Notes: generated by a model from the letters alone, not told the origin. A stretch of 64,000 nucleotides of DNA from Armatimonadota bacterium (GCA_030550775.1 JAUQOS010000002.1:4808-68807), one strand, 5' to 3'. Positions 20,664 through 44,218 are shown, numbered from the stretch's first letter. Made by a program: numbers and translations.

Positions 20664-20766
20664 GTATACTGAACGGCGCAACGAACTACGCACTTGTGCG
20701 TCAAAAGCGGATAGGAACCATTGTCTATATGCAGAATCTGGCAACGGAAGAGGAGGTTTGAGCGCA

Positions 20767-23700
20767 GTGAAACGATTCTGGCTGCTGTTTGGAGCGGGGC
20801 TGCTGACGATTTGGATGGGCTACGCGCAGGGCAACTTAGAAGAAATTCTGCGCCAAGACCCTTCGCGCAATCGCCCCGGTCGCCACTTTTTACCGAATGC
20901 ACGCCCGCGCGAAATTCCGCCTCAAAACTACCGGGTGGCGCCCTCGCGCCCACCACAAACAGGCGCACGCTGGCGCAAAACAGGACTGTTTGACCCTGTC
21001 GAGTTCCATCGCAACCTCCAGAACCGCCAGCAGCGCACGCGCGCCCCGCGCTGGGATCGCGACATCACCAACTCCGCCACCGACGAACTACATATGGTGT
21101 ATAACCCCGGCGCCACGCGCGTCTACTTCTCCAGCAATGCGTCGGCAGTCGTAGGCGGGCGGCTAGCAAACCCTACACCCAACTACCGCATCTGGCGGGG
21201 CGATATCGACGACGGCTCAGCGCAAGGGCTGGGCAACCTCGTTAACCTCACAATTCTTACAGGCGATACCCCCGATGAGCAGTTCGGCAGCCAGATTCAA
21301 CCCGCGCTCAACGAGGCCGCCAATATCCTCGCTTACGCAAACCGCACGGCAACAGGCAGCTACAATATCATCGTGCGCAACTTGCGCTCGGGACAGCGTA
21401 TCGTTATTACTGCCGACAACGACGGTGTCACGCAAAACCTGCGCCCCACCCTTGCTCCTGGGGGGAATCTAATCGCGTTTGCCTCTAATCGCCTGGAGCA
21501 AGGCGAAACCGAAGCAGACCGCCGCTACCGAATCTACCTTGCCCGTGCCGACGGGCGCCCGTTTGAAGATGGCACCTTCTTCCGTCGCCTTACCTTTCCC
21601 GACCCAGGCTTCCACGATGTGGAACCCGCATGGTCGCCCGATGGCACGCGTATCGCCTTTGCGCGCGTTGCCCCTGACGGGAGCAGCTACCTCTACCTGC
21701 TCGATGTGAACACACGCGCCGTTGTCCAGTGGACCAGCTTCGTAGATAACAACGGTAATCGCCCCAGCGATCGGCACCCTTCGTGGGCGGTGTTCAATGG
21801 GGTACCTATCCTAATCTTTGCCTCTACTCGCAAATCAGGCGACCCCCACCGAATCGCGCGCCCTGCCGACCGAATCGACACCACCAACCGCGTCTATGAC
21901 ATTTTCCGCATCGACACAATCGTGCCTGAAGATCAAGGCAGCGTACCCGTTTCGCTAAGCGCAGACCCCAGCGCCGCCGACGGCGTGGTCCCACGCCCCG
22001 ATGTCCCATACCTTACGACGCCACCGTTTGCCCCTACGCTCGGCGCCAAATACCCCAGTGGCGCCCTGGACGAACGTAACCGTGTGGGCTACCACTCCAC
22101 ACGCACCACGGGCGCAGAAACTCCCGGTCCCGGCATCCACGACCTGTGGGAGACCCAACTGTTTGATGTCACACCGCCTGTGCTGGAACTTCTGCCGACC
22201 GTGACGCCCAAAGAAGGTTTTGCAGGCGACGAAGTGACCATTCGCGTGCGTGTGGTGGACTTCCAAAGCGGTGTGGAGTTCGTACGCGTGCAATTCAAAG
22301 ACCCCGACAGCGCTGAGCAGGACGCAGAAGGACGTGAACACCGCATCTACCAACTGTTCACTTTCGACCCGCTTTTCCCCAACCGGATTTTGGTAGAGCA
22401 AGTGGGGCAAGCCTATGTGCCCCTGTTTGTGGAGGTTGGGCAACAAGCCATCCACCCAGAGACATACGAATACAAAGACCCCTACACACTGGTGCGATTG
22501 GGCTTTAATGGCAGCTTAGACGACACCCTGCTGATGGAACCGGTATTAGACGAGAACGGCAACCCCACTGACGTCTACGAGGCGCGTTGGCGCACGCCCG
22601 ATGTGCCCAGCGACTTCTACATCGATATCATCGTGCGCGATCGCGCAGGCAACGAGTTCATCTACGACAACATCTCAGGCTTCACCACGCGCCAGTTTGT
22701 GGGCGCCAACAACATCCTGCTAGTATCCGACTATATGGGCGGGCAATACTTCGTACAGAACCGAATTGATGTGATTGGCAACAGCATCGCCCGCCCCACT
22801 TGGCAACCTGTGGAGAGCTACTGGACCGACAACCCCACAGGTAAGTACCCATTTGACCTGACGCAACCACCGACAGGCTCGCCGCAGATTATCATCGGTG
22901 ATGGCGCCATCCCGCACCCGCGCGTCTTTGGTGCCACCATTCGTTCCGACACTTTGGGCGAAAATACGACCTACGGCAACCTGTACGACATTTGGCGCGT
23001 GCAGTGCCGCAACCCGATTACTCCGTCGGTGTTGGCAGGCTACCTGCCGCGTGTAGAGCGCGAGCCGACTGACCTTGTAGGCGGCTTCCGCGAGAAACTG
23101 CACGCCCCGCGCGCCGTGTTCTGGGCAAGCCCCTACACGGGTAATGTATGGGCAGGTCCGGGGCACCTGCTCGACCCTGAAGTGCAAGACCTGCTGCGCA
23201 GCTTCCTCAACAGCGGTGGGCGGCTGATGGTGAGCGGTCAGGACGTAGCCTGGGCGCTAACCCTGGGCGGAGGCGTAGCAAATTCATTCCTGCGCAATGA
23301 GCTGCGTGCGCAGCTCGACAGCGATGTCGCCGAGGATATCTTCTTGGTCGTCTATCAAGGCTTCCGCCGCGAGCTAACCAGCACGGGCGGCTTAGAAACC
23401 GACCCAGATACGGGCGACCCGAACCCCATCGCTCGCAACCCCGCGGGGCTGCCTATCTGGGTACGCCTGGAGGGCACCACGTTCGTGGTAGATCGCCCCG
23501 AAACCTTGCGCCTGTCGCACCCGGGCAACTACTACATTACGCCGTTCGGTGACTTTATTGATGTGGTGACGCCGATTGGCACCACAACCACCACTCCGCT
23601 CTTCACCGACGCGGCGTGGAACCAAGTGTGGCCCGACACCATCGTGACTGACCCCGACAACCGCGCGCCCTACCGCTACACCACGCCAGGACAGCTGGCA

Positions 23701-26265
23701 GACCAAGCGCGTCAGCGCGCCGGTACCTACTTCGCTAACCCAGGCAACCGCTCGAAGATTGTGTTCTTCTCGTTCGGTGTGGAGGGCGTCAACTCGGGCT
23801 ACACGCAAGGACCGACGGGCATTTTGTGGAGCCGCGCCCTGCGCAACAAGATTGTGCACAACGCTTTTGGCTGGCTCACTCACAGCGTGGTGCAAGGCAC
23901 CGTGCGCCAGTATGACCCGAGCACTGGCACTTATCTACCGCTACCACGCGCCCTGGTGCGCGCCATCGCTCTAGCGCCGCCCAGTATCGCGGGCACCATC
24001 GCGGGCTACGCCATCACTGACTCCAGCGGCTTCTATCGCATCGTGGGCTTAGAATCGGGCGTCTACATCATCGACGCCGAGCGCCCTGGCTTCCGCACGC
24101 AACACCCTGAGTCGGTAGGTTTAGTTGCTACTACAGCAACGATCAACTTGATTGCCTTAGCCGCGCCGCCTGGGCAGCTCAGTGGGCGTGTGATTGATAC
24201 CAACAACCAACCTGTGCGCGGCGCGTTGGTGGTCGCCACCAACACCACCGACCCCGAGCTGAAGGTGCGTGCCTTCACCGACCCCGATGGCACATTCGTC
24301 ATTCCGCGCGTACCCATCGGCACTTGGGATGTCACGGTGGAAGCCATCACCTTCGGCGATTACAACCTGCCGCCTGTTCAGCCAACACCCGACGGTGTCT
24401 ACCGCAATGTGGTGGTGCGCTCTGGCGAAACCACGAATGTGGGCGACTTCGTGTTGGAACCGTTCCCCGGCACAGTGGCAGGCACCGTGACTGATGCCGA
24501 TACGGGGCAACCGATTGCGGGCGCGCGCATCACGGCGGTCATCGGCACAACCACCCGTGCCGAAGTGACCACCGACGCGAACGGGCAATACACCTTTGAT
24601 GTGCCAGCAGGCGAGTATGTGGTGGTGGCGGCCGCACCCGGCTACGCCGTCGCTACCGAATCGGTGAGCGTGCGCTCGCGCGAGACCACCACGCTGGACT
24701 TCCAGCTGCGGCGCCTGCCGCCTGGCTCAGTAGCAGGGCGCATTACTCGCCGCTTCGGTGGCGCACCCGAGCCCGATGTGGTGGTCGAACTGCGCTTCGG
24801 TGCAGCATCCCTCTTCACAACCACCACCAACGCGAACGGCGAGTATCTATTCCCCAACGTGCCTGCGGGCGAGTATGTGGTGGTGCCCAGCAAGCCGGGC
24901 TTCACCTTCACACCCAGCCAGCGCACAATCACCGTCGTGTCGGGGCAGCGTACGAATGTGCCCGAGTTCAAGTCGGAACCGCTGCGCACCTTCTTCCGCG
25001 GGCGCACGCTGGTCTCCGCGCCGTTTGACTACGCGCAAGATGTTCGCACCCTGCTTAGCGTGCCCGCGAACGCCACCTTCCGCTTCTTCACTTGGGATGC
25101 GGGCTTGGCACGCTATGTGTTCTATCCGAACGCACCTGCCAACCGCTTCCAGCTTGGTCGCGGCTACTTCATCGAGACTTCTGAAGACCTGCCGCTCAGC
25201 ATTGAGGGCACCCCTGCCGACGATACGCAGCCGTTTGCCATCCAGCTGCAGGCTGGCTGGAACCTCATCGGCAACCCGTTCCGCTCGGATGTAGACTGGG
25301 CGCGAGTGCAGGTGCTTGACCCAGACACCAACACACCGCTGTCACTCTCTACAGCCGTTGGGCGTGGGCTGATTGCCAACGCGCTGTGGGGCTACTCGTT
25401 CGGCAGCTACCTCGCCACCACGCGCATGCGCGTGTGGGAAGGCTACTGGGTGTATGCCTACCGTGATGTGGTGCTGTTGATTCCACCAAGTGCGCGCATC
25501 AGCGGTCTCTCGCGCAGCGTTGCGGAGCGCACTCCACGCGACTGGCAGCTGACCATTGAGGCGCAAGCAGGCAACACGAAAGACCGCATCTATGTGGGCG
25601 TGGCACGCACAGCCACCAACGGCTTCGACGCTGAGCACGACTTGCTCAAGCCACCGCCCGTAGAGGCAGGTTATGTGCACCTGAGCATCCCGCGCCTTGG
25701 CTGGGGGCAGCACAGTGGTGCCTACGGCGTGGACATCCAAGCACCCACCCGTAGCGCAAGCTGGGAGTTCGTAGTAGAGACAGCTGAGCCGAACCAAGAG
25801 GTTGTGCTACGCTGGCCCGACCTGCACCAGCTGCCGCGCAACGCCAACCTCGTGCTGGTGAACCTCGCAACGGGCGAGCGACGCCACCTGCGCACCACCA
25901 GTGCGTACACCTTCCGCACCGATAGCAACGGCATTGGGCGGTTCCGCCTGGAAACGGCTCCGATGAGCCAGCTGCTGCGCATTCAGCAGGTGCAGGTGAA
26001 CTCGGGACGCGGCAATCAGCACACGATTACCTTCCAACTGACAGGAGATGCGACGGTGCAGGTGAATATTGTGGCAGGCGGCAAGGTGGTACGCCAACTG
26101 CTCAACCAAGCCACCCGCAGCGGCGCCCTGCAGCAAGCCACTTGGGATGGACGCGACCAAAGCGGTGTGGCGCTGCCGCCCGGCACCTACATCGTAGAGA
26201 TTCGTGCCGTGAGTGAGGACGGGCAAGTCGCCCGCGCAACCGCTCCAGTGGTACTCACACGCTAA
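20767..26265 (+). CDS. Giant secreted protein: PD40/TolB-like propeller, 4-5 CarboxypepD_reg-like domains and the shared C-terminal module (operon gene A)
   Basis: About 1832 aa. GTG at 20767 lies 10 nt after GAGGAGG (the track starts at TTG 20758). Signal peptide present. PD40-like AWSPDGTRIAFAR and LAPGGNLIAFASNR. Repeats such as VAGTVTDADTGQPIAGARI..TDANGQYTFDVPAGEYVV. C-terminus is FlgD-Ig-like. Confidence 0.8.
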   Translation: MKRFWLLFGAGLLTIWMGYAQGNLEEILRQDPSRNRPGRHFLPNARPREIPPQNYRVAPSRPPQTGARWRKTGLFDPVEFHRNLQNRQQRTRAPRWDRDITNSATDELHMVYNPGATRVYFSSNASAVVGGRLANPTPNYRIWRGDIDDGSAQGLGNLVNLTILTGDTPDEQFGSQIQPALNEAANILAYANRTATGSYNIIVRNLRSGQRIVITADNDGVTQNLRPTLAPGGNLIAFASNRLEQGETEADRRYRIYLARADGRPFEDGTFFRRLTFPDPGFHDVEPAWSPDGTRIAFARVAPDGSSYLYLLDVNTRAVVQWTSFVDNNGNRPSDRHPSWAVFNGVPILIFASTRKSGDPHRIARPADRIDTTNRVYDIFRIDTIVPEDQGSVPVSLSADPSAADGVVPRPDVPYLTTPPFAPTLGAKYPSGALDERNRVGYHSTRTTGAETPGPGIHDLWETQLFDVTPPVLELLPTVTPKEGFAGDEVTIRVRVVDFQSGVEFVRVQFKDPDSAEQDAEGREHRIYQLFTFDPLFPNRILVEQVGQAYVPLFVEVGQQAIHPETYEYKDPYTLVRLGFNGSLDDTLLMEPVLDENGNPTDVYEARWRTPDVPSDFYIDIIVRDRAGNEFIYDNISGFTTRQFVGANNILLVSDYMGGQYFVQNRIDVIGNSIARPTWQPVESYWTDNPTGKYPFDLTQPPTGSPQIIIGDGAIPHPRVFGATIRSDTLGENTTYGNLYDIWRVQCRNPITPSVLAGYLPRVEREPTDLVGGFREKLHAPRAVFWASPYTGNVWAGPGHLLDPEVQDLLRSFLNSGGRLMVSGQDVAWALTLGGGVANSFLRNELRAQLDSDVAEDIFLVVYQGFRRELTSTGGLETDPDTGDPNPIARNPAGLPIWVRLEGTTFVVDRPETLRLSHPGNYYITPFGDFIDVVTPIGTTTTTPLFTDAAWNQVWPDTIVTDPDNRAPYRYTTPGQLADQARQRAGTYFANPGNRSKIVFFSFGVEGVNSGYTQGPTGILWSRALRNKIVHNAFGWLTHSVVQGTVRQYDPSTGTYLPLPRALVRAIALAPPSIAGTIAGYAITDSSGFYRIVGLESGVYIIDAERPGFRTQHPESVGLVATTATINLIALAAPPGQLSGRVIDTNNQPVRGALVVATNTTDPELKVRAFTDPDGTFVIPRVPIGTWDVTVEAITFGDYNLPPVQPTPDGVYRNVVVRSGETTNVGDFVLEPFPGTVAGTVTDADTGQPIAGARITAVIGTTTRAEVTTDANGQYTFDVPAGEYVVVAAAPGYAVATESVSVRSRETTTLDFQLRRLPPGSVAGRITRRFGGAPEPDVVVELRFGAASLFTTTTNANGEYLFPNVPAGEYVVVPSKPGFTFTPSQRTITVVSGQRTNVPEFKSEPLRTFFRGRTLVSAPFDYAQDVRTLLSVPANATFRFFTWDAGLARYVFYPNAPANRFQLGRGYFIETSEDLPLSIEGTPADDTQPFAIQLQAGWNLIGNPFRSDVDWARVQVLDPDTNTPLSLSTAVGRGLIANALWGYSFGSYLATTRMRVWEGYWVYAYRDVVLLIPPSARISGLSRSVAERTPRDWQLTIEAQAGNTKDRIYVGVARTATNGFDAEHDLLKPPPVEAGYVHLSIPRLGWGQHSGAYGVDIQAPTRSASWEFVVETAEPNQEVVLRWPDLHQLPRNANLVLVNLATGERRHLRTTSAYTFRTDSNGIGRFRLETAPMSQLLRIQQVQVNSGRGNQHTITFQLTGDATVQVNIVAGGKVVRQLLNQATRSGALQQATWDGRDQSGVALPPGTYIVEIRAVSEDGQVARATAPVVLTR
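24991..26262 (+). other. Shared C-terminal module, copy 1 (in gene A)
   Basis: About 424 aa, colinear with copies at 29764-31101 and 32539-33816. Motifs: GWNLIGNPF (25255-25281), DWQLTIEAQAGN, LVLVNLATGERRHLRTTSAYTFRT, ATWDGRDQSGVALPPGTYIVEI..APVVLTR. Confidence 0.8.
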
Positions 26266-26293
26266 CAGACTGAAGGATGAAGGAGGAGTGAGC

Positions 26294-28084
26294 GTGAAAG
26301 CACGGATGAGACGAACTTGGTCGAAACGCACGGCGCTGGTCGGCGTGGTGAGTATGCTGGCAGTCAGCATACTCTATCCGCTGGGGGCAGCCCGCGCCTA
26401 CGCCCAACTGATACAGCTGCCCCGCATCGCGGTGCTGGACTTTGAAAACAAAAGCGGCTACGGCGGCGCCAGCATCGCCCGCGCCGCCACGGACGCCGTC
26501 GCCAGTGAATTCCAAAAACTACGCAAATACGAAGTCCTGGCACGCGGCGAGGTCGAACAACAACTCAAAGACCTTGACCTAACGCCGCCGCTAGACCGCA
26601 CGGGCTTCCTCCGCCTGGGACGCGCCCTGCAAGTGGAGTCCATCATCACGGGCGAAGTGAACGCCGTGACCTTTGTAGGCAGCCCCAAGCAAGCCCAAGT
26701 AGTGATTACCGTGCGTGTGATTGATGTGGCGTCGGGCGAACCAATCAACGGCGCGGTCGCTACTGGGCTAAGCAACCGCCGCCCGGGCTACACAGGCGAT
26801 GACGACACCCTCGTGCAGGAAGCTGTCCGCAACGCCGCGTTTGAAGCCGTGCGCATCATCAATAACTACACCATCCCCGAGGCCACCGTGCTGACCACGC
26901 GCGCGGGCAAGGAAGTGCTGCTTAACCGCGGCATCCGCGGCGGCTTGCAGCCCGGCATGGAGATGATCGTCATTCGACGCGGTGAGGAAGTAGGGCGTAT
27001 CCGTGTCACCCAAGTGTCCGACAGCGACGCGGTGGCAGAAATCATTGACTTCGGACGCGGGATCCAAAGCGAAGACCGCGCCCGCGCCATCTTCCGCGCC
27101 CCCACTGTGCAAGTGAAAGCAGGCAAAGTTGTTACAGAACGCCCACGCCAAAACGGACGCGGTAATCAGCTACTGCGCGCGCTGGGTCCCCTGCTGGTAG
27201 TCGGCTTAATCGCCTTCGGCGTGGCGCGTGCCTCATCAGGAGGCAATACCCCTGTTGAACGCGTTATCGCCGAAGCAGGAGCTGATGCCAACTTCGAACC
27301 ATTCATCCGCGTTCGCTGGAGCACAACGTTGTTCTCTAAAAGCGTAGAAGACAAACTTCAATGGCAAATCTACCGTTCCGATTTCACGGGCACAGACGCT
27401 AACGGGCAGTTGCGCCCCATCGGTGTAACGCCGGGCAACCAGAACTTCTTTATTGACGATACGGTGCCGCGAGTATTCGCCTATGTCACGGCGCCACGCC
27501 TTCGGGAGGGCGTCGAGGATGTAGAACTGGAAGAGTATGGTGCGGACTCGCCTGCGCCTGGTGTCGCTCCCGGCCGTTCCTACACCTACCAAGTGGCGTT
27601 GGTCTACCGTGAACAGCGGTTCGCGGAAGGACAAACCCTGATTCTATTCCGGATTTCCGACCGTGTGCGCTCGGGGCAGGCGACCGCCATCGCACCTGTG
27701 TTTCTGTTAGACCCGCCGCAACGAAGCGAGGATGTTGACCCGAAAGCGGTGCGCTTCAGCTGGCTCGCAGCAGAAGGCGCAAACGCCTACCGCGTGGAGG
27801 TCTCTACAGACCCCACCTTCCGCGATCGGGCACGCACCTTCGTGTCAAACGAAATTCTCTCTACGGCAGCAGGAGGCACTCCTGTCTCGACAGAGACCCT
27901 CAACATCGAGACTGCTTTCCTGCAGCGGCTGGGGTTGGCGGGACGTCGCGTAACGCTCTACTGGCGCGTTGGCGCACGCAACCTCACCGACGACCCCGGT
28001 CCCATTCCCGGTCCTGGTGGGCTGCGCTATGTGTGGAGCCGTCCGTTCGAATTCACCACACAAGAGTTGCCACCAGCCCCCTAA
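26294..28084 (+). CDS. Secreted/membrane protein: CsgG/TolB-N-like alpha/beta domain, internal TM helix and Fn3-like C-terminal region (operon gene B)
   Basis: About 596 aa. GTG at 26294 lies 7 nt after AGGAGG. Signal peptide ..ARAYAQ. PRIAVLDFENKSGYGG..ITGEVNAVTF..VVITVRVIDVASGE is CsgG-family-like. TM segment LLRALGPLLVVGLIAFGVA sits mid-protein. Confidence 0.72.
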   Translation: MKARMRRTWSKRTALVGVVSMLAVSILYPLGAARAYAQLIQLPRIAVLDFENKSGYGGASIARAATDAVASEFQKLRKYEVLARGEVEQQLKDLDLTPPLDRTGFLRLGRALQVESIITGEVNAVTFVGSPKQAQVVITVRVIDVASGEPINGAVATGLSNRRPGYTGDDDTLVQEAVRNAAFEAVRIINNYTIPEATVLTTRAGKEVLLNRGIRGGLQPGMEMIVIRRGEEVGRIRVTQVSDSDAVAEIIDFGRGIQSEDRARAIFRAPTVQVKAGKVVTERPRQNGRGNQLLRALGPLLVVGLIAFGVARASSGGNTPVERVIAEAGADANFEPFIRVRWSTTLFSKSVEDKLQWQIYRSDFTGTDANGQLRPIGVTPGNQNFFIDDTVPRVFAYVTAPRLREGVEDVELEEYGADSPAPGVAPGRSYTYQVALVYREQRFAEGQTLILFRISDRVRSGQATAIAPVFLLDPPQRSEDVDPKAVRFSWLAAEGANAYRVEVSTDPTFRDRARTFVSNEILSTAAGGTPVSTETLNIETAFLQRLGLAGRRVTLYWRVGARNLTDDPGPIPGPGGLRYVWSRPFEFTTQELPPAP

Positions 28085-28167: not shown

Positions 28168-31104
28168 ATGCGAAGGATGTGGCGCTGGATTGGGATGTTG
28201 CTGATGTGGCAGGGCGTGTTTGCACAAACCATCACGCCCAACGATGTTGTACCGGGCGAGATTGTGATGCGACTCAAGCCCGGTCGCACGCTGGATACTG
28301 CGCGGGCGATCGCCAACCTCATCAATGCGGACGCCCACCCTATCCCCGTGCAGGATACCTACCTACTGCGCCTGCGCAATGTAGCGCAACTCACACGAGA
28401 AACTGCCTTCGAAAAAGTCCAAGAGTCGCTGAGACGCTTGGAGCAGCACCCCGACGTGTTATATGTCGATCCGAACTATCTTTTACGCAAACACGACATC
28501 CCCAATGACCCACTCTTCCCCGAGCAGTGGGCATTGGAGATGATGCGCCTGCCCGCTGCATGGGATGTGCAAAAAGGCGACCCGCGCATCCGCATGGCGT
28601 TCATCGACGATAACTTCCAGCGCTCTCATCCTGACCTGCGCAATGTGTTCGATGCCCTTTCGCGCAACTTCGTACCAGACACCCCCAATGATAACATTGA
28701 CCCTGAAGGTCCCGGCTTCTCACACGGCACCTCCACAGTGGGAGTGGCCGCGGCCATCACCGATAACGGAATAGGCATTGCCGGTTTGACTTGGCAGCGT
28801 GCTTTGCCTGATGATGCTCCCGCAAAACCTGTCGTGGCACTGAAAGTCGAAGCACGTCCCGACACAATCGGTTTAAACTTTGCCAACATCCTCAAAGCCT
28901 TACAGTATGTGATCGACAATGCCTCGCAGATTTTTGTTCTAAACATGAGCTTTGGCGGTTACGGTTTCTCTTCGCAGGCAAACGCCCTGATTCAGGAGAT
29001 CTATCGGCGAGGCGTAGTACCCGTTGCCTCCGCAGGCAACGAGAATACCGATATTCCCACTTACCCCGCGAACTACCCGAATGTGGTGAATGTATCGGCG
29101 GTAGGGCGTACGGGTGCACGCGCCTCCTACTCCAACTATGGCAACATCACCTTGGCTGCGCCCGGAGGCGACCAATCCACCGGATACTTCGATGGCGTGG
29201 TGACCACCTCCTCCACTGCACTTCAGTACGAATATGTTCAGGGAACTTCGTATGCGGCACCCTATGTTACTGCCGCAATTGCGCTGCTAATCGCTTCGGG
29301 AGTGCCTCGCCACACTGCGGATGCGGTGGAACCCGAGGCGGTGAGAATCCTAAAAGACACTGCTGACCCACGCGGGCGCCGCGTACCTGACCCTGAGCTT
29401 GGCTATGGGATTATTGATCTGGAGCAAGCCTTGCGAGGCGCAGGCGGAGTAAGCATCGCGTTCGTAGAGCCTGCTCCGGGAGCCACTTACGATACGCGCA
29501 AAGTGCGTGTGCGCGTGGCGCTGCGCCGCGTGTTAGACAATAACACTGCCAACATTCGCAGCATCAAGTTGAATGAGGAGCCACTGCCGCGCGATTTGTG
29601 GGAACCAACCGCTGAAATCAATGTTTCTGAGAAGACGATCACTCTAGACTTCGTCGTGGAAGTGCCAGGGGAAGACCGCTACACGATTACCGTGGAGGCG
29701 GTGGGGCAAGACCAAGTGCGCCGGGAGAGTTCGGTGCGGTGGTTTGTGCGCTCACGCGAGCAAGTAGCGGGCTTGGCGATGTTCTCCACGCCTTATCGCT
29801 TTGACGAGACCCCTGAGGAGATTTTCGGCGTAGATGCAATTTTGGCGCGCTACATCCCAAGTGAAGGCACCTACGCCCGCTATACAGCTGCCAATCGCGA
29901 TCCGCGCGCAGGCTTCAACCCGCCGAATGTGGGCGTGCGTCCTGATGGCAGCGATACGCCCACCCCGCCACGCGGGCTGGGTTACTTCCTGCGCAACGCC
30001 ACCCCCGCCCGCCTGCTAGGCGATGAGTTTATCGATCTCAACACCGCCTACCTCATCCCGCTGGAAGAAGGTTGGAACATGATCGGCAACCCGTTCCCGT
30101 TCAATGTGCCGTGGGCAGCGTGCGAGGTTGAAATCACAGGCTTGGGCGGGCAACGCCAACGCATCACCTTAGACGAAGCGGTGCGCCGCGAAATTATCCG
30201 CCCGCAAATCTACCGCTATATCCCGCTTACGGGCGAGTACACCTGGCGCACGGCACCGCTCGGTGAACTTATTGCATGGCAAGCGCACTGGGTTAGGGCA
30301 CTCAAACCGTGCGTACTGGTGGTGCCCCCTGTGGGAAGCTTGCGCAGCCGCGCTGACGACACAGCACGGGTTACGCCCGCCCCAACCGACGGCTGGCTAC
30401 TGCGCCTCGTCGCCCGTAGCGGCAACCGCGAAGACTCCAACAACTTTATTGGGGTTGTTAGCGGAACCGACACCAAGCTCAGCCTCGTGGAGAAACCACC
30501 GGCATTCCAGTCTTATGTCGCCCTTGCGATTGTGGAGCCACGCACACGAGCGGCGCTGGCGCAAGAAGTGCGCTCGGGCCTCAAGCGCGCCCACCGCTGG
30601 GAAATTGAGGTGACCACCGACCAGCCAAACGCCGAAGTGACGCTGCAGTGGAACCAAGAGCAGCCGATTCCACGAGGCGTTCGTCTCACGCTGGTTGATC
30701 AAGCCACGGGCGAGCGCGTCTCAATGCTGCAGCAAAGCTCATATCGGTTCCGCACTGACGAACACAGCCGTCGCCGATTCGTCATCGAGGCAGAACCTGC
30801 ACGCGCTAACCGCCTCCAAATCACAAATGTGACCATCACACCGTCACGGGGCGGGCAGTTCGCAGTGCAATACGCTCTTAGCGATACTGCCAGCGTGCAG
30901 GTGCTGGTACAAGACGCAACGGGCAAGACCATCGCGCGTCTACAAGGTGGTACACGCTCCGCGGGAGTGAACACTGCCACTTGGAACGGGCGTACTGATG
31001 CCGGCGTGGCGGTGCCGCCAGGGGCGTATCAACTCCAAATTATTGCAACCAGTGAAGATGGTGAGGTGGCGCGCGTAGTGCGCCCGCTGGTGGTGACGCG
31101 ATAA
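28168..31104 (+). CDS. Subtilisin-like S8 serine protease with the shared C-terminal module (operon gene C)
   Basis: 978 aa with a signal peptide and an inhibitor_I9-like propeptide. Catalytic-triad contexts: AFIDDNF (Asp), FSHGTSTVG (His), GTSYAAPYVTAA (Ser). GGGAGGAG SD upstream. Confidence 0.88.
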   Translation: MRRMWRWIGMLLMWQGVFAQTITPNDVVPGEIVMRLKPGRTLDTARAIANLINADAHPIPVQDTYLLRLRNVAQLTRETAFEKVQESLRRLEQHPDVLYVDPNYLLRKHDIPNDPLFPEQWALEMMRLPAAWDVQKGDPRIRMAFIDDNFQRSHPDLRNVFDALSRNFVPDTPNDNIDPEGPGFSHGTSTVGVAAAITDNGIGIAGLTWQRALPDDAPAKPVVALKVEARPDTIGLNFANILKALQYVIDNASQIFVLNMSFGGYGFSSQANALIQEIYRRGVVPVASAGNENTDIPTYPANYPNVVNVSAVGRTGARASYSNYGNITLAAPGGDQSTGYFDGVVTTSSTALQYEYVQGTSYAAPYVTAAIALLIASGVPRHTADAVEPEAVRILKDTADPRGRRVPDPELGYGIIDLEQALRGAGGVSIAFVEPAPGATYDTRKVRVRVALRRVLDNNTANIRSIKLNEEPLPRDLWEPTAEINVSEKTITLDFVVEVPGEDRYTITVEAVGQDQVRRESSVRWFVRSREQVAGLAMFSTPYRFDETPEEIFGVDAILARYIPSEGTYARYTAANRDPRAGFNPPNVGVRPDGSDTPTPPRGLGYFLRNATPARLLGDEFIDLNTAYLIPLEEGWNMIGNPFPFNVPWAACEVEITGLGGQRQRITLDEAVRREIIRPQIYRYIPLTGEYTWRTAPLGELIAWQAHWVRALKPCVLVVPPVGSLRSRADDTARVTPAPTDGWLLRLVARSGNREDSNNFIGVVSGTDTKLSLVEKPPAFQSYVALAIVEPRTRAALAQEVRSGLKRAHRWEIEVTTDQPNAEVTLQWNQEQPIPRGVRLTLVDQATGERVSMLQQSSYRFRTDEHSRRRFVIEAEPARANRLQITNVTITPSRGGQFAVQYALSDTASVQVLVQDATGKTIARLQGGTRSAGVNTATWNGRTDAGVAVPPGAYQLQIIATSEDGEVARVVRPLVVTR
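29764..31101 (+). other. Shared C-terminal module, copy 2 (in gene C)
   Basis: About 446 aa. Motifs: GWNMIGNPF (30070-30096), GWLLRLVARSGNREDSNNFIGVV, LTLVDQATGERVSMLQQSSYRFRT, ATWNGRTDAGVAVPPGAYQLQI..RPLVVTR. Confidence 0.8.
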
Positions 31105-31125: not shown

Positions 31126-33819
31126 ATGAAGCGAGGAATTGTGCTTGGTTTGCTAACTATTCTGGTTGGGGCGTCGGCATTTGCCCAAATCAATGAATAC
31201 GATCCGTTTGCGGGTCCATGCCGCTGCCCCGACAGCCAAAACCCCGTGAGCGATGACTATCGCGCGATTGTAATTGATAATGGGGTGCTTGGTGCCACTT
31301 TAGGCTTGAGCGGCACGGTAACTTGGCTGACGGCATGCTTCCCATTAGAGAATGCGCGCTGCACCACACGCCCCGCTGAGGGAAGCATTCAAATCGGTAC
31401 TGCAGAGGGTAGCTCACTCATCACTGGCGATGAAGGCTACGCAATGACCTCGGGCTACCCGTGGGCGGTCTACCCGGGTGGGATATATATCTCGATGCGA
31501 GCCCGTCGCGAGGGACAGGAGCAAACCTTCGTATGGGGGCGACAGGACGGTGCGCCAGGACTGCGTTTCTCGCAAGCCTGGCAGGGTGCTAGTGGTTACT
31601 ACATTCGCCGCATCTGGAATGTGGAAGGCTGGGATACCGACCTACGGATTGACCTTATTCAGTCGGTGGCGCGCATCAGTCTACGCGTGCGCAACACCGG
31701 CGACACCGCTGCCTCGCTTGCCCTGCGCCTTGCCTCAGACGTGGAAACGGGCGTGGAAGCGGGATTCGATCCTAACGGCGCCTCGCGCCCTCCCTACATC
31801 TATGTGCAGGGACAACGCCCCGTCAAAGTTGACACCGACCTGCGTGGGGCACAAATCCCAAACACCATCGAGTTCTATTTGGCGCGCGGTGCACTGGCAG
31901 GCTCCAGCCGCTACTTCCTGCGCCCCGTCAAGGGCTTCGAAGATCAGACCCCCATCGACCGACTGGTGATCGGGAAGTGGTTCTTCATTCAAGGCACTAC
32001 CATCTGGGAACCAGTGCTTTTCCCCGACTCGTATATCACTGACACGGCTATCAACATGTTTGTAAACCCACGCAACTTCGCCCCAGGGCAAGTGCGCGAG
32101 TTCGTGTTCTACATTGCGCTAACCCCTGTCGACGTGGATGTACAGCCCCCTGTGGCACTGGGCGTGGAAGCACTGCCCGTAATCGAACCCGACCGTAGCG
32201 ACCTAACCAAGCTGGCAAACGAAGGCGAATTCGAAATCGTCGCCAATATCACGAACCAATTCTTCATCGTTGGGCGCGAGATTGACCTTACGAATGTGGC
32301 TGTGGACCTCGCCCTGCCAGAAGGCGTGACGCTGGCACCCGGACAAACGCGCTCACAAGTTATTCCACGAATCGCCCCGGGACAAACTGTTCCTGTGCGC
32401 TGGCGAGTACGTGCCTCGCCCACCCTATCGGGCTTTGTGACCTTCCGCGTGGCTGTGCAAGCACCTCCGGCACCGACAAAGACCGTTTCGCGCACGATAC
32501 TCGTATCTGCCACCGCCACTCGCAAGTTCGAGTCGGGGTTCCAGATGGTATCCATTCCGTTCACCGTCACGGGCACGATAAGCGAAGTGCTGAACCTGCC
32601 CACAAACTATCAGGCAAAGCGTTGGAACCCCGAACGCGAGGTTTACGAAACCATAGACTTCATTGAGCCGGGTCAAGGTTTTTGGGTGTTCTTGCCGCGC
32701 GAGCCGCTGGTGGCACAATATAACACAAGCTTCCTACAGTTCCCAGCGAATGTGTTTACGACCAGCGTGCCCATCCCGCTGAAACGCGGCTGGAATCAGA
32801 TTGGCAACCCATACCCATACCCGCTGGTGCTGGGGCAGGTGGTTATCGTTAGCTCCAGCGACCCACGTCGTAGCCTTACCTTCTTTGAGGCAGCCCAGCG
32901 CGGTGTGATTCGCGGCGTTATCTACTTCTGGGACGAGTTCACAGGCGAGTACAAGTTCACCTCCGACCCGAACACGCCGCTGCTGCCGCACCGCGGCTAC
33001 TGGATTCGCGCCAACGAGGATATCGAATTCGTCTATCCGCCTGTGTTCTTGCCGGGTACAGGCTTTGGCGGCGTGGTGCGCAGCATGCCAGAGCTGCCCA
33101 ACCGCCCCAACGAGTGGCGGCTGCAGATTGTGGCACGCACGGCAAACGGCGCTGACACGCAAAACTTCATCGGCATTACCAGCGGCGCCCCCATCGAAGT
33201 GGAAGAACCACCCACCCCGCTGCCAGAGCGCGCAGTGAACCTCACCATTCTCAAGCAGGGCACAGGCGCGCCGCTGATGCAGGAGGTGCGCACCGTCGCG
33301 AACCGCCACCAGTTCGACTTGCTGGTAGAAGCGACCCCCGGCACCGAAGTCACGCTGAGCTTCCCGAACCTGGCGACCGTGCCTCAGGCATACCGCCTGC
33401 GCCTGGTTGACCTCAACACGGGGCGCGCCATAGACCTACGCACCACACCGGAGTACCGATTCGTCACCACTGGGCGCACACGGCTACAACTGGTGGTGGA
33501 ACGCGCAACGCGCGCAGGCGCGCTGATTACCAGCGTAAGCGTGGGCACGGCGGGGCGCGGAGCCAACAGCGTGTCTATCAGCTATGTGCTGGCGGATAGC
33601 GCACAAACCAGCGTGCAAATCCTTACACCTGATGGGCGTGCCATCGCCAACCTGCAGCGCGGACGCGCCGCCACTCGCGGTGTAAACACGCTCACTTGGA
33701 ACTTGCGCGATGATCAAGGACGCGCTGTGCCTCCGGGCACCTACCAAGTGCAAGTAGAAGCCCGCACCGAGGATGGGCAAGTAGCGCGCGCAGTGCGTCC
33801 GCTGGTCATCACACGCTAA
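31126..33819 (+). CDS. Secreted hypothetical protein with the shared C-terminal module (operon gene D)
   Basis: 897 aa with a signal peptide (LLTILVGASAFAQ). AAGGAGG SD upstream. I do not recognise the N-terminal ~470 aa. Confidence 0.75.
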   Translation: MKRGIVLGLLTILVGASAFAQINEYDPFAGPCRCPDSQNPVSDDYRAIVIDNGVLGATLGLSGTVTWLTACFPLENARCTTRPAEGSIQIGTAEGSSLITGDEGYAMTSGYPWAVYPGGIYISMRARREGQEQTFVWGRQDGAPGLRFSQAWQGASGYYIRRIWNVEGWDTDLRIDLIQSVARISLRVRNTGDTAASLALRLASDVETGVEAGFDPNGASRPPYIYVQGQRPVKVDTDLRGAQIPNTIEFYLARGALAGSSRYFLRPVKGFEDQTPIDRLVIGKWFFIQGTTIWEPVLFPDSYITDTAINMFVNPRNFAPGQVREFVFYIALTPVDVDVQPPVALGVEALPVIEPDRSDLTKLANEGEFEIVANITNQFFIVGREIDLTNVAVDLALPEGVTLAPGQTRSQVIPRIAPGQTVPVRWRVRASPTLSGFVTFRVAVQAPPAPTKTVSRTILVSATATRKFESGFQMVSIPFTVTGTISEVLNLPTNYQAKRWNPEREVYETIDFIEPGQGFWVFLPREPLVAQYNTSFLQFPANVFTTSVPIPLKRGWNQIGNPYPYPLVLGQVVIVSSSDPRRSLTFFEAAQRGVIRGVIYFWDEFTGEYKFTSDPNTPLLPHRGYWIRANEDIEFVYPPVFLPGTGFGGVVRSMPELPNRPNEWRLQIVARTANGADTQNFIGITSGAPIEVEEPPTPLPERAVNLTILKQGTGAPLMQEVRTVANRHQFDLLVEATPGTEVTLSFPNLATVPQAYRLRLVDLNTGRAIDLRTTPEYRFVTTGRTRLQLVVERATRAGALITSVSVGTAGRGANSVSISYVLADSAQTSVQILTPDGRAIANLQRGRAATRGVNTLTWNLRDDQGRAVPPGTYQVQVEARTEDGQVARAVRPLVITR
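32539..33816 (+). other. Shared C-terminal module, copy 3 (in gene D)
   Basis: About 426 aa. Motifs: GWNQIGNPY (32788-32814), EWRLQIVARTANGADTQNFIGIT, LRLVDLNTGRAIDLRTTPEYRFVT, LTWNLRDDQGRAVPPGTYQVQV..RPLVITR. Confidence 0.8.
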
Positions 33820-33828
33820 AACCAACTT

Positions 33829-33851
33829 GGGGCTGGCAGGACGCCAGCCCC
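33829..33851 (+). promoter_or_regulatory. Intra-operon GC-rich hairpin between genes D and E
   Basis: GGGGCTGGC-AGGAC-GCCAGCCCC, a perfect 9-bp stem followed by TCCTAT and the SD of gene E. Confidence 0.4.
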
Positions 33852-33872: not shown

Positions 33873-34565
33873 GTGAAACGGATTGGAGTGCTGCTGGTCG
33901 CCCTATTGTTGGCTCAGGGCTTTGCGAGCCAAGTGCGCGAGCTGGTACTGTTCCCGTTTGCCGAAGGCGCCGCCGTACAGCCCACAGAGGAGTTCAATGT
34001 GGGCGTGGAAATGCTCAACGCGCTTTACGCGCAGCTGAAAGAGATACCTAACCTCTATGTAGTGCGCTATCGCGAAACGAACCCATCGATTCAGCGCGCT
34101 TTGGAAGAAAATCGCTTACGCCGCGACCGGCTAACCCCACCATTTAACCAGCGCGAGGCGGACGGCACTTGGCGCGCAGCACGCATCGGTGCCGTAATGG
34201 GAGCAAACCTCGCCTTCGCTGGGCGCATCGAGGAGTTCAGCTACAACCCCGAAACCCGCGAGGTCACGCTCACAGTTAGCGGCGAACTAATCGATGTCGC
34301 CACGAACGAGGTGCTCCTCACGGTCGCAGAGACGGGGCGTGGGCAGTTAGGTCGGGACGAAACCGATCCGAACCTCGCGCGCATCGCGGCCGTTGCGCAA
34401 GTGGCAGAGCGCATCAGCATAGCGATGCGCGAGCGGTTGGCACCTGCTGCGGAACAACCCATCAAAGCCGAACCGCGCAAACAGCCCGATCGCCGACGCG
34501 AACGCGCAATCGCCTCAATCTTTGTGGTCGTGATAGGAGCCATTCTCGGGGCATCAGATTTGTAA
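33873..34565 (+). CDS. Small secreted alpha/beta protein with a C-terminal TM anchor, paralogous to the N-domain of gene B (operon gene E)
   Basis: 230 aa. GTG start after AAGGAGG. Signal peptide. LVLFPFAEG..AFAGRIEEFSYNP..VTLTVSGELIDVATNE parallels the IAVLDFEN..ITGEVNAVTF..ITVRVIDVASGE pattern of gene B. C-terminal AIASIFVVVIGAILGA. Confidence 0.68.
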   Translation: MKRIGVLLVALLLAQGFASQVRELVLFPFAEGAAVQPTEEFNVGVEMLNALYAQLKEIPNLYVVRYRETNPSIQRALEENRLRRDRLTPPFNQREADGTWRAARIGAVMGANLAFAGRIEEFSYNPETREVTLTVSGELIDVATNEVLLTVAETGRGQLGRDETDPNLARIAAVAQVAERISIAMRERLAPAAEQPIKAEPRKQPDRRRERAIASIFVVVIGAILGASDL

Positions 34566-34570
34566 AGCAT

Positions 34571-36511
34571 ATGAGGCGATATGCACCGCTGGCTCGCGCA
34601 CTAGGGGCAGGGGGACTAATGTTCCTCTGCCTTTGCGTTAGCTGGGCAGGGGGCGCGATTCGGCTCACCGTGTACCCTAACGCTGCCGTCGCCGACGGTG
34701 CTTCGCAGGTGCTCATCACCGCCGAAGTGCGCACCGCGCAAGGCAAGCCCGTGCCCGACGGTACCCAGGTTGCTTTCAACACCACCTTAGGCGCGTTTCG
34801 CGAGCCCGTAGTTGCTACCGAAGGCGGTGTCGCGCGCGCAACCCTCATCGCCGGACAGCTGCCCGGCGTTGCCAACATTACTGCCACCGTCATCGGGCAG
34901 GGCATCGTGGGTGAAACCCAAGTGCTGTTTGTGGCAACCCCAGAAGAACTGCGCAGTGCGACCGACTATGTACAGGTGCTGGGGAGCGAGTATCTCGCCT
35001 ACGCAAACGAGCAGCGCGTTATCGCAGCGTCAGGCAGAGAGCGGGGCGCGCGCGTGCAGTTCGGCTACGCCATCGTAGAAGCAGACGACCTGCAGGTGGA
35101 AGTTGACACCCTCCGCGTGAAGGCCCGCCACGCGCTCTTGCGAGTCGGCTCCGAGACGCTGGAATGCGCCGAACTAAGCTACGAGTTGCGCACCTCACAG
35201 GGCTACGCCCTGCTGCAACGCGCTAACCGTTGGGAGCTGGTGCGCTTGCGCTACGCCACCCCTGAACCGATTGACACGCCCGCACCACCCGAACTGTTCC
35301 GCTTCGTTGACATCTCCGAATCGGAACTGGTCATCAAAGCCGCACAAATCTGGTTTTATCCAAATGAACGGATCCAGTTCCATCGCGCAGAGTTCTACAT
35401 TGGGGCGGTTCGAGCGTTTGGTTTGCCGTTGTATTCGCACAGCATCTGGGGAGCAGGCGTCGGCACCGACACGCTGATTGGGGTGCAAGGCGGGCAAGTG
35501 TATTTAGACCTGCCGTACTACTACACGCTTACCCCCACGCAGATCGGCGCGTTGCGCTTGCGCACCGCACAAGTGGGTGGGCGCACGGTGAGCGCAGCGC
35601 GCGGACTGTTTGTGGACTTGGAGCACGAGTATCGTTTTGGGCTAGGCACAGGCGCAGTTCGTCTGCTGGGGCTGGCGCGCAATGACTGGGGCATCAACTG
35701 GCGACATCAGCAGCCCCTCTCGCCCCGCACGCGCCTCTCGCTGTGGCTCGACTCGCCCGCTCATCAAGGGTTGTACAGCACGGCGCAACTGCTCTCGCAG
35801 TTTCGCGACTATTCCATAGGTATCTCGGTCGCTCACAGCACTTTTTGGGAAGGCACGGGCACACGCAGCCTTCGTACAGACACATACATAGAGACGACAC
35901 CGCGCCGCATCGCGCCCTTACCACTGCGTCAAAGCCTCTCGCTGAGCCTTGTTACGAGCCATACGCAAACGACCACAGGCACGCAGCGTCGCGAAGGCGT
36001 GGGAGTACGGGCACGCTGGAGCTTGGTGCCACAATCGCTGGGGCAAGCAACCACGCTCACGGGGGGCATCACGGTAGGGCGGTACGCGGGCAACTTGCCC
36101 AACGCGGGCTGGAGCGTGGTCGGCACGGTAGGCATCACACAAGCACTCGGAGCAGGGGGTGCACTCAATCTCGCCTACGATTATGCCCAAGATGCGCTGG
36201 GCGCAAACCTGCTGGGACGCCACCGCTTGTCAGGCACCCTCAGTTGGAACAATAATGACCGCTATTTCCTCAGCGGCTATCTCAGCCGTGCGTTAGACAC
36301 AAAATCTGTCAGTTATATCAGCGACTTTTCGTGGCGAGTCAGCCCCTTATGGCGTATTGGGGCGGGGTATACTTGGCAAGCGTTCGGCAACTACGAGTTT
36401 CGAGACCAAACGCTCACGCTCGCGTACCGCATCGGCTATCGCGAGTTTGCGCTTACCTGGTCTTCGAACACGCGGCGATGGAGCCTTGACTTGCTGACGG
36501 CATTTTATTGA
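34571..36511 (+). CDS. Outer-membrane protein: Big_1 Ig-like domain, OstA/LptD-like region and beta-barrel (operon gene F)
   Basis: 646 aa, starting 5 nt after gene E. VYPNAAVADGASQVLITAEVRTAQGKPVPDGTQVAFNT is a Big_1 (invasin/intimin-type) pattern. YLDLPYYYTLTPTQ resembles the LPYYWNIAP segment of LptD. Alternating-hydrophobic strands end in ..LLTAFY (aromatic OMP terminus). Confidence 0.7.
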   Translation: MRRYAPLARALGAGGLMFLCLCVSWAGGAIRLTVYPNAAVADGASQVLITAEVRTAQGKPVPDGTQVAFNTTLGAFREPVVATEGGVARATLIAGQLPGVANITATVIGQGIVGETQVLFVATPEELRSATDYVQVLGSEYLAYANEQRVIAASGRERGARVQFGYAIVEADDLQVEVDTLRVKARHALLRVGSETLECAELSYELRTSQGYALLQRANRWELVRLRYATPEPIDTPAPPELFRFVDISESELVIKAAQIWFYPNERIQFHRAEFYIGAVRAFGLPLYSHSIWGAGVGTDTLIGVQGGQVYLDLPYYYTLTPTQIGALRLRTAQVGGRTVSAARGLFVDLEHEYRFGLGTGAVRLLGLARNDWGINWRHQQPLSPRTRLSLWLDSPAHQGLYSTAQLLSQFRDYSIGISVAHSTFWEGTGTRSLRTDTYIETTPRRIAPLPLRQSLSLSLVTSHTQTTTGTQRREGVGVRARWSLVPQSLGQATTLTGGITVGRYAGNLPNAGWSVVGTVGITQALGAGGALNLAYDYAQDALGANLLGRHRLSGTLSWNNNDRYFLSGYLSRALDTKSVSYISDFSWRVSPLWRIGAGYTWQAFGNYEFRDQTLTLAYRIGYREFALTWSSNTRRWSLDLLTAFY

Positions 36512-43207: not shown

Positions 43208-43267
43208 GCTTGCGGATACCTCCCATATGCATTAGAGCGGGTGGCGCGACCTTTCGATTCATCCCCT

Positions 43268-43296
43268 TTGGCAAAACAGAGGCATTGGTGTATAAT
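43268..43296 (+). promoter_or_regulatory. Sigma70-like promoter TTGGCA-17 nt-TATAAT
   Basis: TTGGCA at 43268-43273 and TATAAT at 43291-43296, followed by GGAGG SD and the ATG at 43316. Confidence 0.55.
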
Positions 43297-43315
43297 ACAG
43301 CACGGAGGTAACAAG

Positions 43316-44218
43316 ATGCGTACTCAGCACAAAGGATTCACCCTAATCGAGCTGCTTGTTGTGATTGCGATCATCGCTATCTTGGCAGCGATTTTATTCC
43401 CAGTGTTTTCGCAGGCGCGTGAGAAGGCCAGGCAGACCCAGTGCTTGTCGAACCTGCGTCAAAACATCCAATCGGTGCTGATGTATGTGAACGATTACGA
43501 CACGACCTACCCGCGCGGGATTAGCGGCGAGGGGACTTTGATTATTCATCTGTTCGACTTGCTACACCCCTACCGCAAGGGCGCGGAGATACTTACTTGC
43601 CCATCGTATCCTAACGAGAACGGTGGGATGGACTGGCCAGGGCGGTTGCGAGCCCGCAACTCCGCAAACCGCAGCATGGGCACTTTCCGCTACTTTGCCT
43701 ATGTGCCTAACTACGGTGTTTTCAGCCTAAATACATGCCGCATCTCCACAATCGGCTATCGGAGGGAGGGCAAGCTCATTACTGAAGCGTATGTCCCGCG
43801 CCCTGCCGACACAATCGCGCTTGTAGATGGCTACTGGTACTACAACGCGGGCACTTATTGGTTCGAGTATTGGTTCAAAATAGACATCTGGCCCCGCCAC
43901 CATCTGGGCAGCAACATTGCCTACTTGGATGGGCATGTGAAGTGGTCACACCATCTTGGCATCCCGCGCGGTGGTGAAATCCCGCAAGCGTGGCGACAGA
44001 CCTTCTCGGGCGTGTGCCCGCAGCGCAACACAAACACCTACTACTTCTTTAACTATCCGCCGGGCTGGGCAAACCGCACGCCTAAGAGCGAAGGTGAGTT
44101 CAACACCGTCAACCCGCACGGGCAATGCTTCGGCGACTTCTTTGGCATTCCAGACACGCCTGTGGTAAATGTGTGTGAGCGCTCGTGCGGCTCTACAACT
44201 ACACCGCTGTGCTGGTGA
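43316..44218 (+). CDS. Prepilin-type N-terminal cleavage/methylation domain protein (DUF1559 / H-X9-DG type pseudopilin)
   Basis: 300 aa. [32 protein letters not shown]...C.SNLRQ is the class signature. [16 protein letters not shown] is the H-X9-DG motif. Confidence 0.85.

Follow-up and report, generated by a model that had tools for sequence, protein, structure and literature searches.

Gene C, at positions 28168..31104 on the + strand of a 64,000-nt stretch of DNA from an Armatimonadota bacterium (GCA_030550775.1, JAUQOS010000002.1:4808-68807; the whole stretch is hereafter the window, with positions counted from its first letter), encodes a 978-residue pre-pro-subtilase that ends in a C-terminal module also carried by the products of two neighbouring genes, A and D. 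Our preferred explanation, still tentative and given a rough probability of 0.45, is that C is the envelope-tethered protease subunit of an undescribed Armatimonadota envelope complex encoded by a six-gene operon, A-F. This explanation is built on direct results, namely the domain architecture of C, its intact active site, the paralogy of the modules, the synteny of the operon and the replacement of one protease class by another at the same gene position. The diderm phylum Armatimonadota is widespread, very few of its members have been cultured, and to our knowledge almost nothing is known of how its envelope is built or decorated. The analysis sets a gene annotated just as an ‘S8 family peptidase’ within a defined operon of six genes that recurs across the phylum, with testable entry points in the catalytic serine, a linker motif and the cultured relatives that carry the operon. 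As a kind of protein, the envelope-tethered multidomain subtilase is already known; the more interesting object is the operon, with its three paralogous tails and a protease slot that is interchangeable and in some lineages apparently dead.

The open reading frame (ORF) of gene C and its Asp/His/Ser contexts had been read from the bare sequence in a preliminary description, and both are exact, as evidenced by the ORF list, translation, Pfam matches to S8 and FlgD_ig, alignment to solved subtilases and an AlphaFold2 model built from 51 sequences with a mean predicted local distance difference test (pLDDT) score of 88.4. Translation starts at an ATG with a GGAGG Shine-Dalgarno sequence 8 nt upstream, and residues 144-414 match Pfam Peptidase_S8 (PF00082) with an E value of 2e-32 (113.1 bits against a cut-off of 21.8). 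A codon check placed D147 (AFIDDNF) at nt 28606-28608, H186 (FSHGTS) at nt 28723-28725 and the oxyanion residue N291 (SAGNEN) at nt 29038-29040; the contexts IDDN, SHGTS and GTSYAAP pointed out earlier are real, with the refinement that the catalytic serine is S361, the S of GTS in GTSYAAP (nt 29248-29250). These four residues align onto the catalytic residues of 9rk9_B (E 4e-31), 5yl7_A and thermitase 1tec (E 2e-23). A degenerate active site had also been envisaged and was looked for by alignment, but the triad and the oxyanion Asn are intact, and the Asp, His, Asn and Ser contexts are kept throughout the 21 clear S8 sequences that were compared (C of the window itself, 16 orthologues from the same gene position and four tandem S8+module genes of loci L034 and L036). 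By triad order, oxyanion Asn, Pfam score and subtilisin fold, C is an S8 subtilase. Its catalytic domain spans residues 112-425 (28501..29442, +), as delimited by PDB alignments, orthologue conservation, the codon check and comparison with thermitase 1thm, to which Foldseek fits the model with a template modelling (TM) score of 0.90-0.91 and an rmsd of 2.7.

Upstream of the catalytic domain, a Sec signal peptide without a lipobox Cys is predicted at residues 1-20 (28168..28227, +; MRRMWRWIGMLLMWQGVFAQ-T), from a reading of the sequence and from a helix at residues 2-13 with low pLDDT in the model. Residues 27-104 (28246..28479, +) are predicted to form a propeptide with a beta-alpha-beta fold like those of the I9 and fervidolysin N-pro families, followed directly by a disordered junction at residues 105-111. 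Foldseek pairs C with unautoprocessed pro-subtilisins (3whi_B, 2z2z and EpiP), among them pro-subtilisin E and pro-Tk-subtilisin; Fervidolysin_NPro-like Pfam matches occur in 3 of 31 scanned module-bearing representative proteins. The propeptide-like N-terminus suggested earlier is thus borne out by the predicted fold, which is of the I9 type, and autoprocessing is putative. Propeptides of this type are intramolecular chaperones that are typical of secreted subtilases, though not universal among them.

Genes A-F are regarded as one operon because they lie on the same strand with spacers of only 5-83 nt and good Shine-Dalgarno sites; all six products have predicted Sec signal peptides, several of which end in A[FY]AQ. 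Scanning a genome collection with a profile of the module gave 80 loci, whose ORFs were searched with the window proteins and with family hidden Markov models (HMMs). The complete order A-B-C-D-E-F was found in 13 of the 80 fetched loci, which belong to Fimbriimonadales, Chthonomonadales, Armatimonas, uncultured Armatimonadia and a Fervidibacteria-like metagenome-assembled genome (MAG), and the locus of Chthonomonas calidirosea T49 (L009) reads B-C-D-E-F. The order B-C-D, with a module-bearing protease-fold protein between B and D, recurs in about 24 loci, and in the window itself C is such a protein, lying between the B-like and D-like genes on one strand. The source bacterium belongs to Fimbriimonadales. 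Close homologues of C come from Fimbriimonadales and Armatimonadota MAGs, the nearest genome locus being AP024673 from Fimbriimonadales bacterium KatS3mg018 (~75% identity); across the orders that keep the slot position, C modules are just ~32% identical on average. As the A-F arrangement recurs across Armatimonadota orders, C is, judged by gene order, a genuine operon partner and no chance neighbour. Reduced operons, in which D follows B and A, C and E are missing in cis, are present in seven Fimbriimonadaceae-like loci (L019, L021, L029, L031, L032, L033 and L040). F follows D in five of the seven; L019 stops at a contig edge, and F was not found in L033.

The gene position between B and D, termed here the C slot, is filled by an S8 protein in most lineages. 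In L010 (E 2.4e-14) and L043 (E 9.3e-10), it is occupied by a Peptidase_M6 protein with an intact HEXXH motif (HEFGH and HESGH, respectively). The slot protein of L017 (7087-10170) and the protein P0024 are M6-type homologues (BLASTP E 1e-40) without HEXXH, the corresponding sequences being AMRTGEG and AVRTGSG. In L081, where rpsA and an A-like gene lie upstream, the protein between the B-like and D-like genes (P0073, L081:8001-11081) has a clostripain-like domain of the C11 type (E 4.3e-31) and is free of cysteine beyond its signal peptide, which is itself lipobox-looking (LALGC); the position expected from C11 motifs to hold the nucleophile reads DGSAM. The L017, P0024 and P0073 proteins are apparent pseudo-enzymes and, given their lack of HEXXH or Cys, catalysis seems dispensable in some lineages. 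The repeated recruitment of unrelated protease folds to the slot suggests that its role involves binding or cutting a polypeptide. Since a B-D-F core exists without C and dead protease folds are kept in some lineages, C is by this comparison an accessory and not an obligatory component, whose catalysis is not always kept. The modules of the M6- and C11-type slot proteins are barely nearer to S8-type C modules than to those of A or D (e.g. 0.295 vs 0.283 and 0.270), too slight a difference to settle their type. At L008:8227-11371 and L038:6045-8728, each from a MAG, the C-slot gene consists of two ORFs, one for S8 and one for the module; the gene is either a pseudogene or broken by a frameshift or an error of assembly.

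The module of ~440 residues comprises three beta-sandwich domains and, as the preliminary description had proposed, is common to A, C and D, always at the extreme C-terminus. BLASTP gave 35% identity over 388 residues for A and C (E 9e-51), 40% over 370 residues for C and D (E 2e-57) and 30% over 451 residues for A and D (E 7e-34), and tblastn located exactly three copies in the 64-kb window. In C, the AlphaFold2 model places an Ig-like beta-sandwich spacer at residues 429-527 (29452..29748, +) ahead of module domain 1 at residues 530-720 (29755..30327, +), which was delimited by alignments, conservation over 86 modules and the model, and which carries the conserved motifs GxGYW, GWNxIGNP and GYW. 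A flexible linker within the module (residues 721-741; 30328..30390, +), with low pLDDT in the models of both C and D, contains LRSRADD with a semi-conserved R-[S/A], supported by the motif statistics given below. It leads to domain 2 (residues 742-877; 30391..30798, +), a beta-sandwich in the model, with the conserved motifs W..L.A......D..N..G, PP, VTLxW and LxDxxTG. The terminal FlgD_ig-like domain (residues 885-976; 30820..31095, +) ends in ...RPLVVTR and has the motif WxGR...G..VPxGxY; residues 893-963 match Pfam FlgD_ig (PF13860) with an E value of 1.6e-14, and the module profile matches the solved FlgD 7eh9_A with an E value of 1.4e-8. FlgD is the sole sequence relative of the module in the PDB by profile search, for the last ~75 residues. 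Sequence and profile searches of the PDB with the module, B, D and F returned FlgD for the last domain, Ig domains and, for F alone, a marginal LptD. For the module part of D, a Foldseek comparison of its model with the PDB gave generic beta-sandwich arrays, of the alpha-2-macroglobulin family and with low TM scores, and no fold relative specific to domains 1 and 2; the full model of C gave subtilases alone in the same kind of search, with nothing informative on the module.

In a search of 1.84 billion representative proteins, a profile built from five modules matched 36,007 at E <= 1e-3, of which 9,637 reach E <= 1e-10 and 2,356 reach E <= 1e-30; a word-indexed search gave the close C orthologues alone, and the exhaustive profile search was needed for the remainder. 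The top 150 matches mostly cover nearly the full profile and end at the protein C-terminus, a few being repeat proteins matched via the FlgD_ig part. Local HMMs assigned the top 148 to ~66 S8-type, 21 A-like, 23 D-like and a few M6-type proteins, besides fragments. Within the operon the modules cluster by type, and a module's nearest neighbour from another genome shared its type in 57 out of 60 cases. Mean identity is 0.31-0.33 for the same type in different genomes, 0.30-0.31 for different types in the same genome and 0.26-0.28 for different types in different genomes. From the type clustering and the higher identity within genomes, the A-, C- and D-type modules are, as far as these alignments indicate, three ancient paralogous lineages that appear to co-evolve within each bacterial lineage, which fits co-assembly or a shared receptor.

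On these grounds, the following course of events may be proposed for C as a protease subunit of an envelope complex. The zymogen would be exported by Sec and lose its signal peptide, after which the I9-like propeptide would assist folding of the thermitase-like S8 domain and then be cut at the disordered junction near residues 105-111 in a self-activation step. Mature C would stay joined to the Ig spacer and the three-domain beta-sandwich tail and so be held at the envelope, where the homologous modules would bring A, C and D to the same site, either by co-assembly or through a common binding partner. This site may be organised by the LpoB-like membrane proteins B and E and by F, a putative LptD-like outer-membrane barrel, and C would cut partner proteins there and/or protein substrates from outside.

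Several points weigh against such a complex. The envelope or surface location of C, its co-assembly with A and D and the nature of its substrates are what we infer, and the operon comparison covers the 80 fetched loci. The model of C has a predicted TM score (pTM) of just 0.54, and the relative placement of its domains is therefore unreliable. The higher identity of modules from the same genome could instead reflect amino acid composition, and the modules found outside the operon could mean that the module is a general sorting or anchoring tag and not a complex-assembly domain. The window's own B has no Pfam match, and the LptD-like label of F is a marginal lead (see below for both proteins).

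The preliminary description had drawn a parallel with PorU and suggested that C is a dedicated processing peptidase that matures or releases A and D at the cell surface. In such a role, C would cut A, D and possibly its own chain, either ahead of the module or within the module's flexible linker, and the cut would release or activate them at the surface. We consider this role unlikely, although a good deal of what it presupposes is in place: C is catalytically intact, predicted to be exported, tagged with the module and syntenic with A and D; a protease-fold protein is conserved in the operon alongside A and D; and the joint absence of A, C and E from the reduced B-D(-F) operons suggests that C co-occurs with A. 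Cleavage of PrcA that depends on its operon partner, the subtilase PrtP, in the dentilisin complex (PMC8167434) and the presence of PorU, which bears the C-terminal domain (CTD) of the substrates, in the attachment complex of type IX secretion (the T9SS; PMC8545088, PMC5562754) provide precedents. The linker between module domains 1 and 2, rich in Ala, Ser, Gly and Thr with a median length of 21.5 residues and disordered in the models of C and D, would be a plausible target. It holds R-[S/A], often as [ST]-R-[SA], ~12 residues before domain 2, in the form of LRSRADD in C, LSRSVAE in A (~nt 25480-25540) and VVRSMPE in D (~nt 33060-33100). [ST]R[SA] occurs in 34% of linkers against 10% of shuffles and R[SA] in 65% against 40%, with none of 500 shuffles reaching the observed values, a significance that is overstated because the sequences are related. 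Among the D-type modules 21 of 23 carry the motif, among the A-type 11 of 15 and among the C-type 14 of 22, but it occurs in just one of 14 more distant modules (loci L049-L077, mostly MAGs of phyla of the FCB (Fibrobacteres-Chlorobi-Bacteroidetes) superphylum). Against C as the enzyme that cuts it, the motif is retained in six of the seven D proteins encoded in operons that lack the protease; it shows no co-variation with C, was rejected as evidence of C-dependent cleavage and is not tied to C, though it may be a candidate processing or recognition site. No conserved motif was found at the N-terminal boundary of the 86 modules, and so a junction sequence shared by module-bearing proteins, which the preliminary description had proposed to look for, exists at most as this semi-conserved R-[S/A] in the inner linker. 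What does not stand of the PorU parallel is an obligatory role, given the persistence of D in seven loci without the protease, the slot proteins devoid of catalytic residues, the lack of co-variation and the absence of TIGR04183 and C25 domains. The suggestion made in the same place that C might be just another cargo amounts to a nutritional exoprotease with the phylum's common export or anchoring tail, standing near other tagged genes through co-regulation of the secretome and having no specific relation to A or D. It draws on modules outside the operon that are fused to a beta-helix/NosD plus Big_1 protein (L042), to CARDB plus LVIVD (L023), to LGFP and FG-GAP/ASPIC proteins and, in L082, to a C13-like peptidase three genes downstream of a module-bearing C39-like+LGFP protein; since these domains are unrelated and lie outside the operon, the module probably serves exported proteins, in part, as a general tail. 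Two adjacent S8+module genes without B, D, E or F in WS1 and ‘Candidatus Zipacnadia’ MAGs (L034:1856-8651 and L036:6223-13102), whose module linkers lack R-[S/A], and the generic thermitase-like S8 domain of C, which has no NCBIfam equivalog match, point the same way. We nevertheless find an ordinary cargo doubtful, for the slot position between B and D is conserved across orders despite the low mean identity of C modules, the catalytic domain is swapped within the slot while the neighbours stay in place, and a purely nutritional enzyme leaves the retained dead protease folds unexplained. Should C be merely an anchored nutritional protease, it would still stand for a new tail architecture among thermophilic subtilases displayed at the cell surface.

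Two further readings involve the T9SS, and both start from the end of the module. Distant relatives, 20-25% identical to the module between the GWN motif and its end, come from Bacteroidota, Ignavibacteria, Rhodothermales, Fidelibacterota, WOR-3, KSB1 and others, and TIGR04183, the T9SS type A sorting domain, scores above cut-off at the end of six of eight such relatives tested from FCB phyla; the tail in the window is, by this profile evidence, homologous to the region that serves as T9SS cargo tail in other phyla, raising the question of whether surface-anchoring modules predated, or exist independently of, the T9SS machinery. That the FlgD_ig-like end is a true T9SS CTD and A, C and D are cargo of an unrecognised T9SS is, in our view, very improbable. 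Besides these relatives, it can call on weak matches between window proteins and the final ~75 positions of NF033707, the PorU model (E 1e-4 to 4e-3), but TIGR04183 and Pfam Por_Secre_tail (PF18962) gave no match at E <= 0.01 for A, C and D, which are thus not recognised as type A cargo, and B, E and F gave no match to any model of a T9SS component. A published account moreover describes the T9SS as confined to the FCB superphylum (PMC12398890), and the genome paper of Fimbriimonas ginsengisoli lists just T2SS, T4SS, Tat and Sec (type II and IV secretion systems, twin-arginine and general secretory pathways; PMC4072686). Less far-fetched, yet still rather improbable, is a protein surface-placement system formed by A-F, in which the module would act as a sorting or anchoring signal related to the T9SS pre-CTD plus CTD, F with B and E would be a platform coupling module proteins to lipopolysaccharide (LPS) insertion, and the C-slot protease would be a PorU analogue cutting the R-[S/A] linker. 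A paper on a ‘long CTD’ of the T9SS was set aside as not relevant, with CTDs of 69-82 residues.

The protease subunit proposed here resembles several known systems in part. Dentilisin of Treponema denticola, encoded by prcB-prcA-prtP, is an outer-membrane-associated pre-pro S8 protease with a long non-catalytic C-terminal domain that forms a complex with its operon partners, and the processing of PrcA into PrcA1 and PrcA2 depends on PrtP (PMC8167434). C is likewise a pre-pro S8 protein with a long non-catalytic tail in an operon with partner genes, and PrtP is its second-best NCBIfam model. However, C is not a PrtP orthologue, as it scores 94.9 bits against a cut-off of 300, and it has no lipobox; none of A, B, D, E and F is related to PrcA or PrcB, and the partners there carry no module homologous to that of the protease. 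In the T9SS attachment complex of Bacteroidota (PorU, PorZ, PorV and PorQ), a protease with the CTD type of the substrates works beside outer-membrane barrels and a tagged partner that contains a propeller, and it has a tie to LPS (PMC8545088, PMC5562754); here the tagged protease C, the tagged propeller protein A and F, a candidate LptD-like barrel, are encoded in one operon. By contrast, PorU is a C25 cysteine peptidase/transpeptidase, whereas C is an S8 protein with TIGR04183 unmatched and no T9SS components recognised among B, E and F, the module has ~440 residues in three domains instead of a CTD of ~70-80 residues, and the C-slot protease is missing or apparently inactive in some lineages. 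Lactocepin PrtP, C5a peptidase and SpyCEP share the order of a pre-pro-S8 part followed by several beta-sandwich domains at the cell surface, and SpyCEP-type structures (5xyr, 6vjb and 7edd) are among the Foldseek matches of full-length C. These enzymes are Gram-positive and anchored by LPXTG and sortase, whereas C ends without LPXTG in a diderm phylum, and their tails are not paralogous to modules on operon neighbours. The last ~90 residues of C match the Ig-like domain of the FlgD hook cap and solved FlgD structures, but C has neither the FlgD N-terminal domain nor a flagellar context, and the domain ends an exported enzyme. Literature searches on Armatimonadota with T9SS, FlgD_ig tails, envelope clusters and Chthonomonas peptidases found no description of the A-F operon.

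Named subtilase and sortase families were also tried for C. A mycosin of the type VII secretion system (TIGR03921) was rejected at 105.6 bits against a cut-off of 278.75, with no C-terminal transmembrane segment in C and no ESX genes within the 64-kb window. Dentilisin PrtP (NF033595) was rejected on its score, the signal peptide without Cys and the unrelated neighbours, the PatA/PatG and QhpE equivalogs on scores far below cut-off, and a PorU-type sortase since C is an S8 protein with no C25 domain that scores 14.8 bits against 420 with NF033707.

Turning to the neighbours, gene A (20758..26265, +; likely start GTG 20767) encodes an exported protein of 1835 residues with a PD40/TolB-like propeller, four CarboxypepD_reg domains and its module at nt 24958-26262, as evidenced by Pfam, NCBIfam and BLASTP; an A-like orthologue carries Tricorn_N and Tricorn_2nd domains in Pfam. 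Gene B (26213..28084, +; likely start ATG 26306) is predicted, from a reading of the sequence, Pfam matches of orthologues and HMMs, to encode a signal peptide, an LpoB-like N-terminal domain, a mid-protein transmembrane helix and a C-terminal domain. The LpoB assignment comes from the B orthologue of Armatimonas (L022), which scores 25.4 bits with PF13036 against a gathering threshold of 22.3. Gene D (31126..33819, +) encodes an exported protein of 897 residues with an N-terminal beta-supersandwich and its module at nt 32506-33816, based on Pfam, BLASTP and an AlphaFold2 model with a pLDDT of 83.6. The supersandwich of ~320 residues, which is followed by Ig/MG-like arrays in the model, resembles N-domains of GH94 phosphorylases, galactose-mutarotase-like proteins and a polysaccharide lyase in Foldseek (probability 1.0, low TM score). 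Gene E (33873..34565, +) encodes 230 residues with a signal peptide, a B-like N-terminal domain and a C-terminal transmembrane anchor, according to a reading of the sequence and HMM matches. The window's E has no LpoB Pfam match; the HMM of E detects the N-terminal domain of B, which indicates a domain common to both. In B and E this domain begins with (I/L)xVLxF, typical of LpoB/CsgG-like folds.

Gene F (34571..36511, +) encodes 646 residues with a signal peptide, a Big_1/Invasin_D3 part and an LptD-like region of ~520 residues ending in ...LLTAFY, as suggested by Pfam and profile searches. Its family comprises 86 proteins, is confined to Armatimonadota and is unannotated. The family profile matches LptD 7omm_A with an E value of 6.3e-4 over ~250 collinear residues, the sole non-Ig match at E <= 0.001, and four weaker rows are glycosidases matched via the Ig-like N-terminal domain alone. 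A barrel-only profile gave LptD alone at an E value of 0.068, with LPLY...LDLPYYYTLTP at the junction of the LptD jellyroll and barrel, and hhalign of F with E. coli LptD found the same region with a probability of 4%; no LptD match for F was present in Pfam or NCBIfam. F may thus be a divergent Armatimonadota LptD or a specialised paralogue. LPYYYTLTP of F aligns to LPYYWNIAP of LptD.

A scan of the operon for promoters and terminators gave nothing above the shuffled expectation, with no convincing internal promoters or terminators. The D-E spacer contains a perfect 10-bp GC-rich palindromic hairpin (GGGGCTGGCG...; 33829-33851), 10 nt past the stop codon of D, which may be an intra-operon attenuator or an mRNA-stabilising element. 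An ORF of ~600 residues follows F in four reduced loci (L029:13364-15169, L031:13321-15165, L032:13159-15048 and L040:6621-8423); that of L029, the one of the four scanned, has no Pfam match. The cluster is flanked by chromosomal housekeeping DNA, with rpsA and coaE upstream and genes for a pyruvoyl arginine decarboxylase and nadE downstream. Elsewhere in the window, an ORF of 1121 residues without a Pfam domain lies at 4696-8061 (+), and a protein of 325 residues with a prepilin-type N-terminal methylation motif is encoded at 43241-44218 (+).

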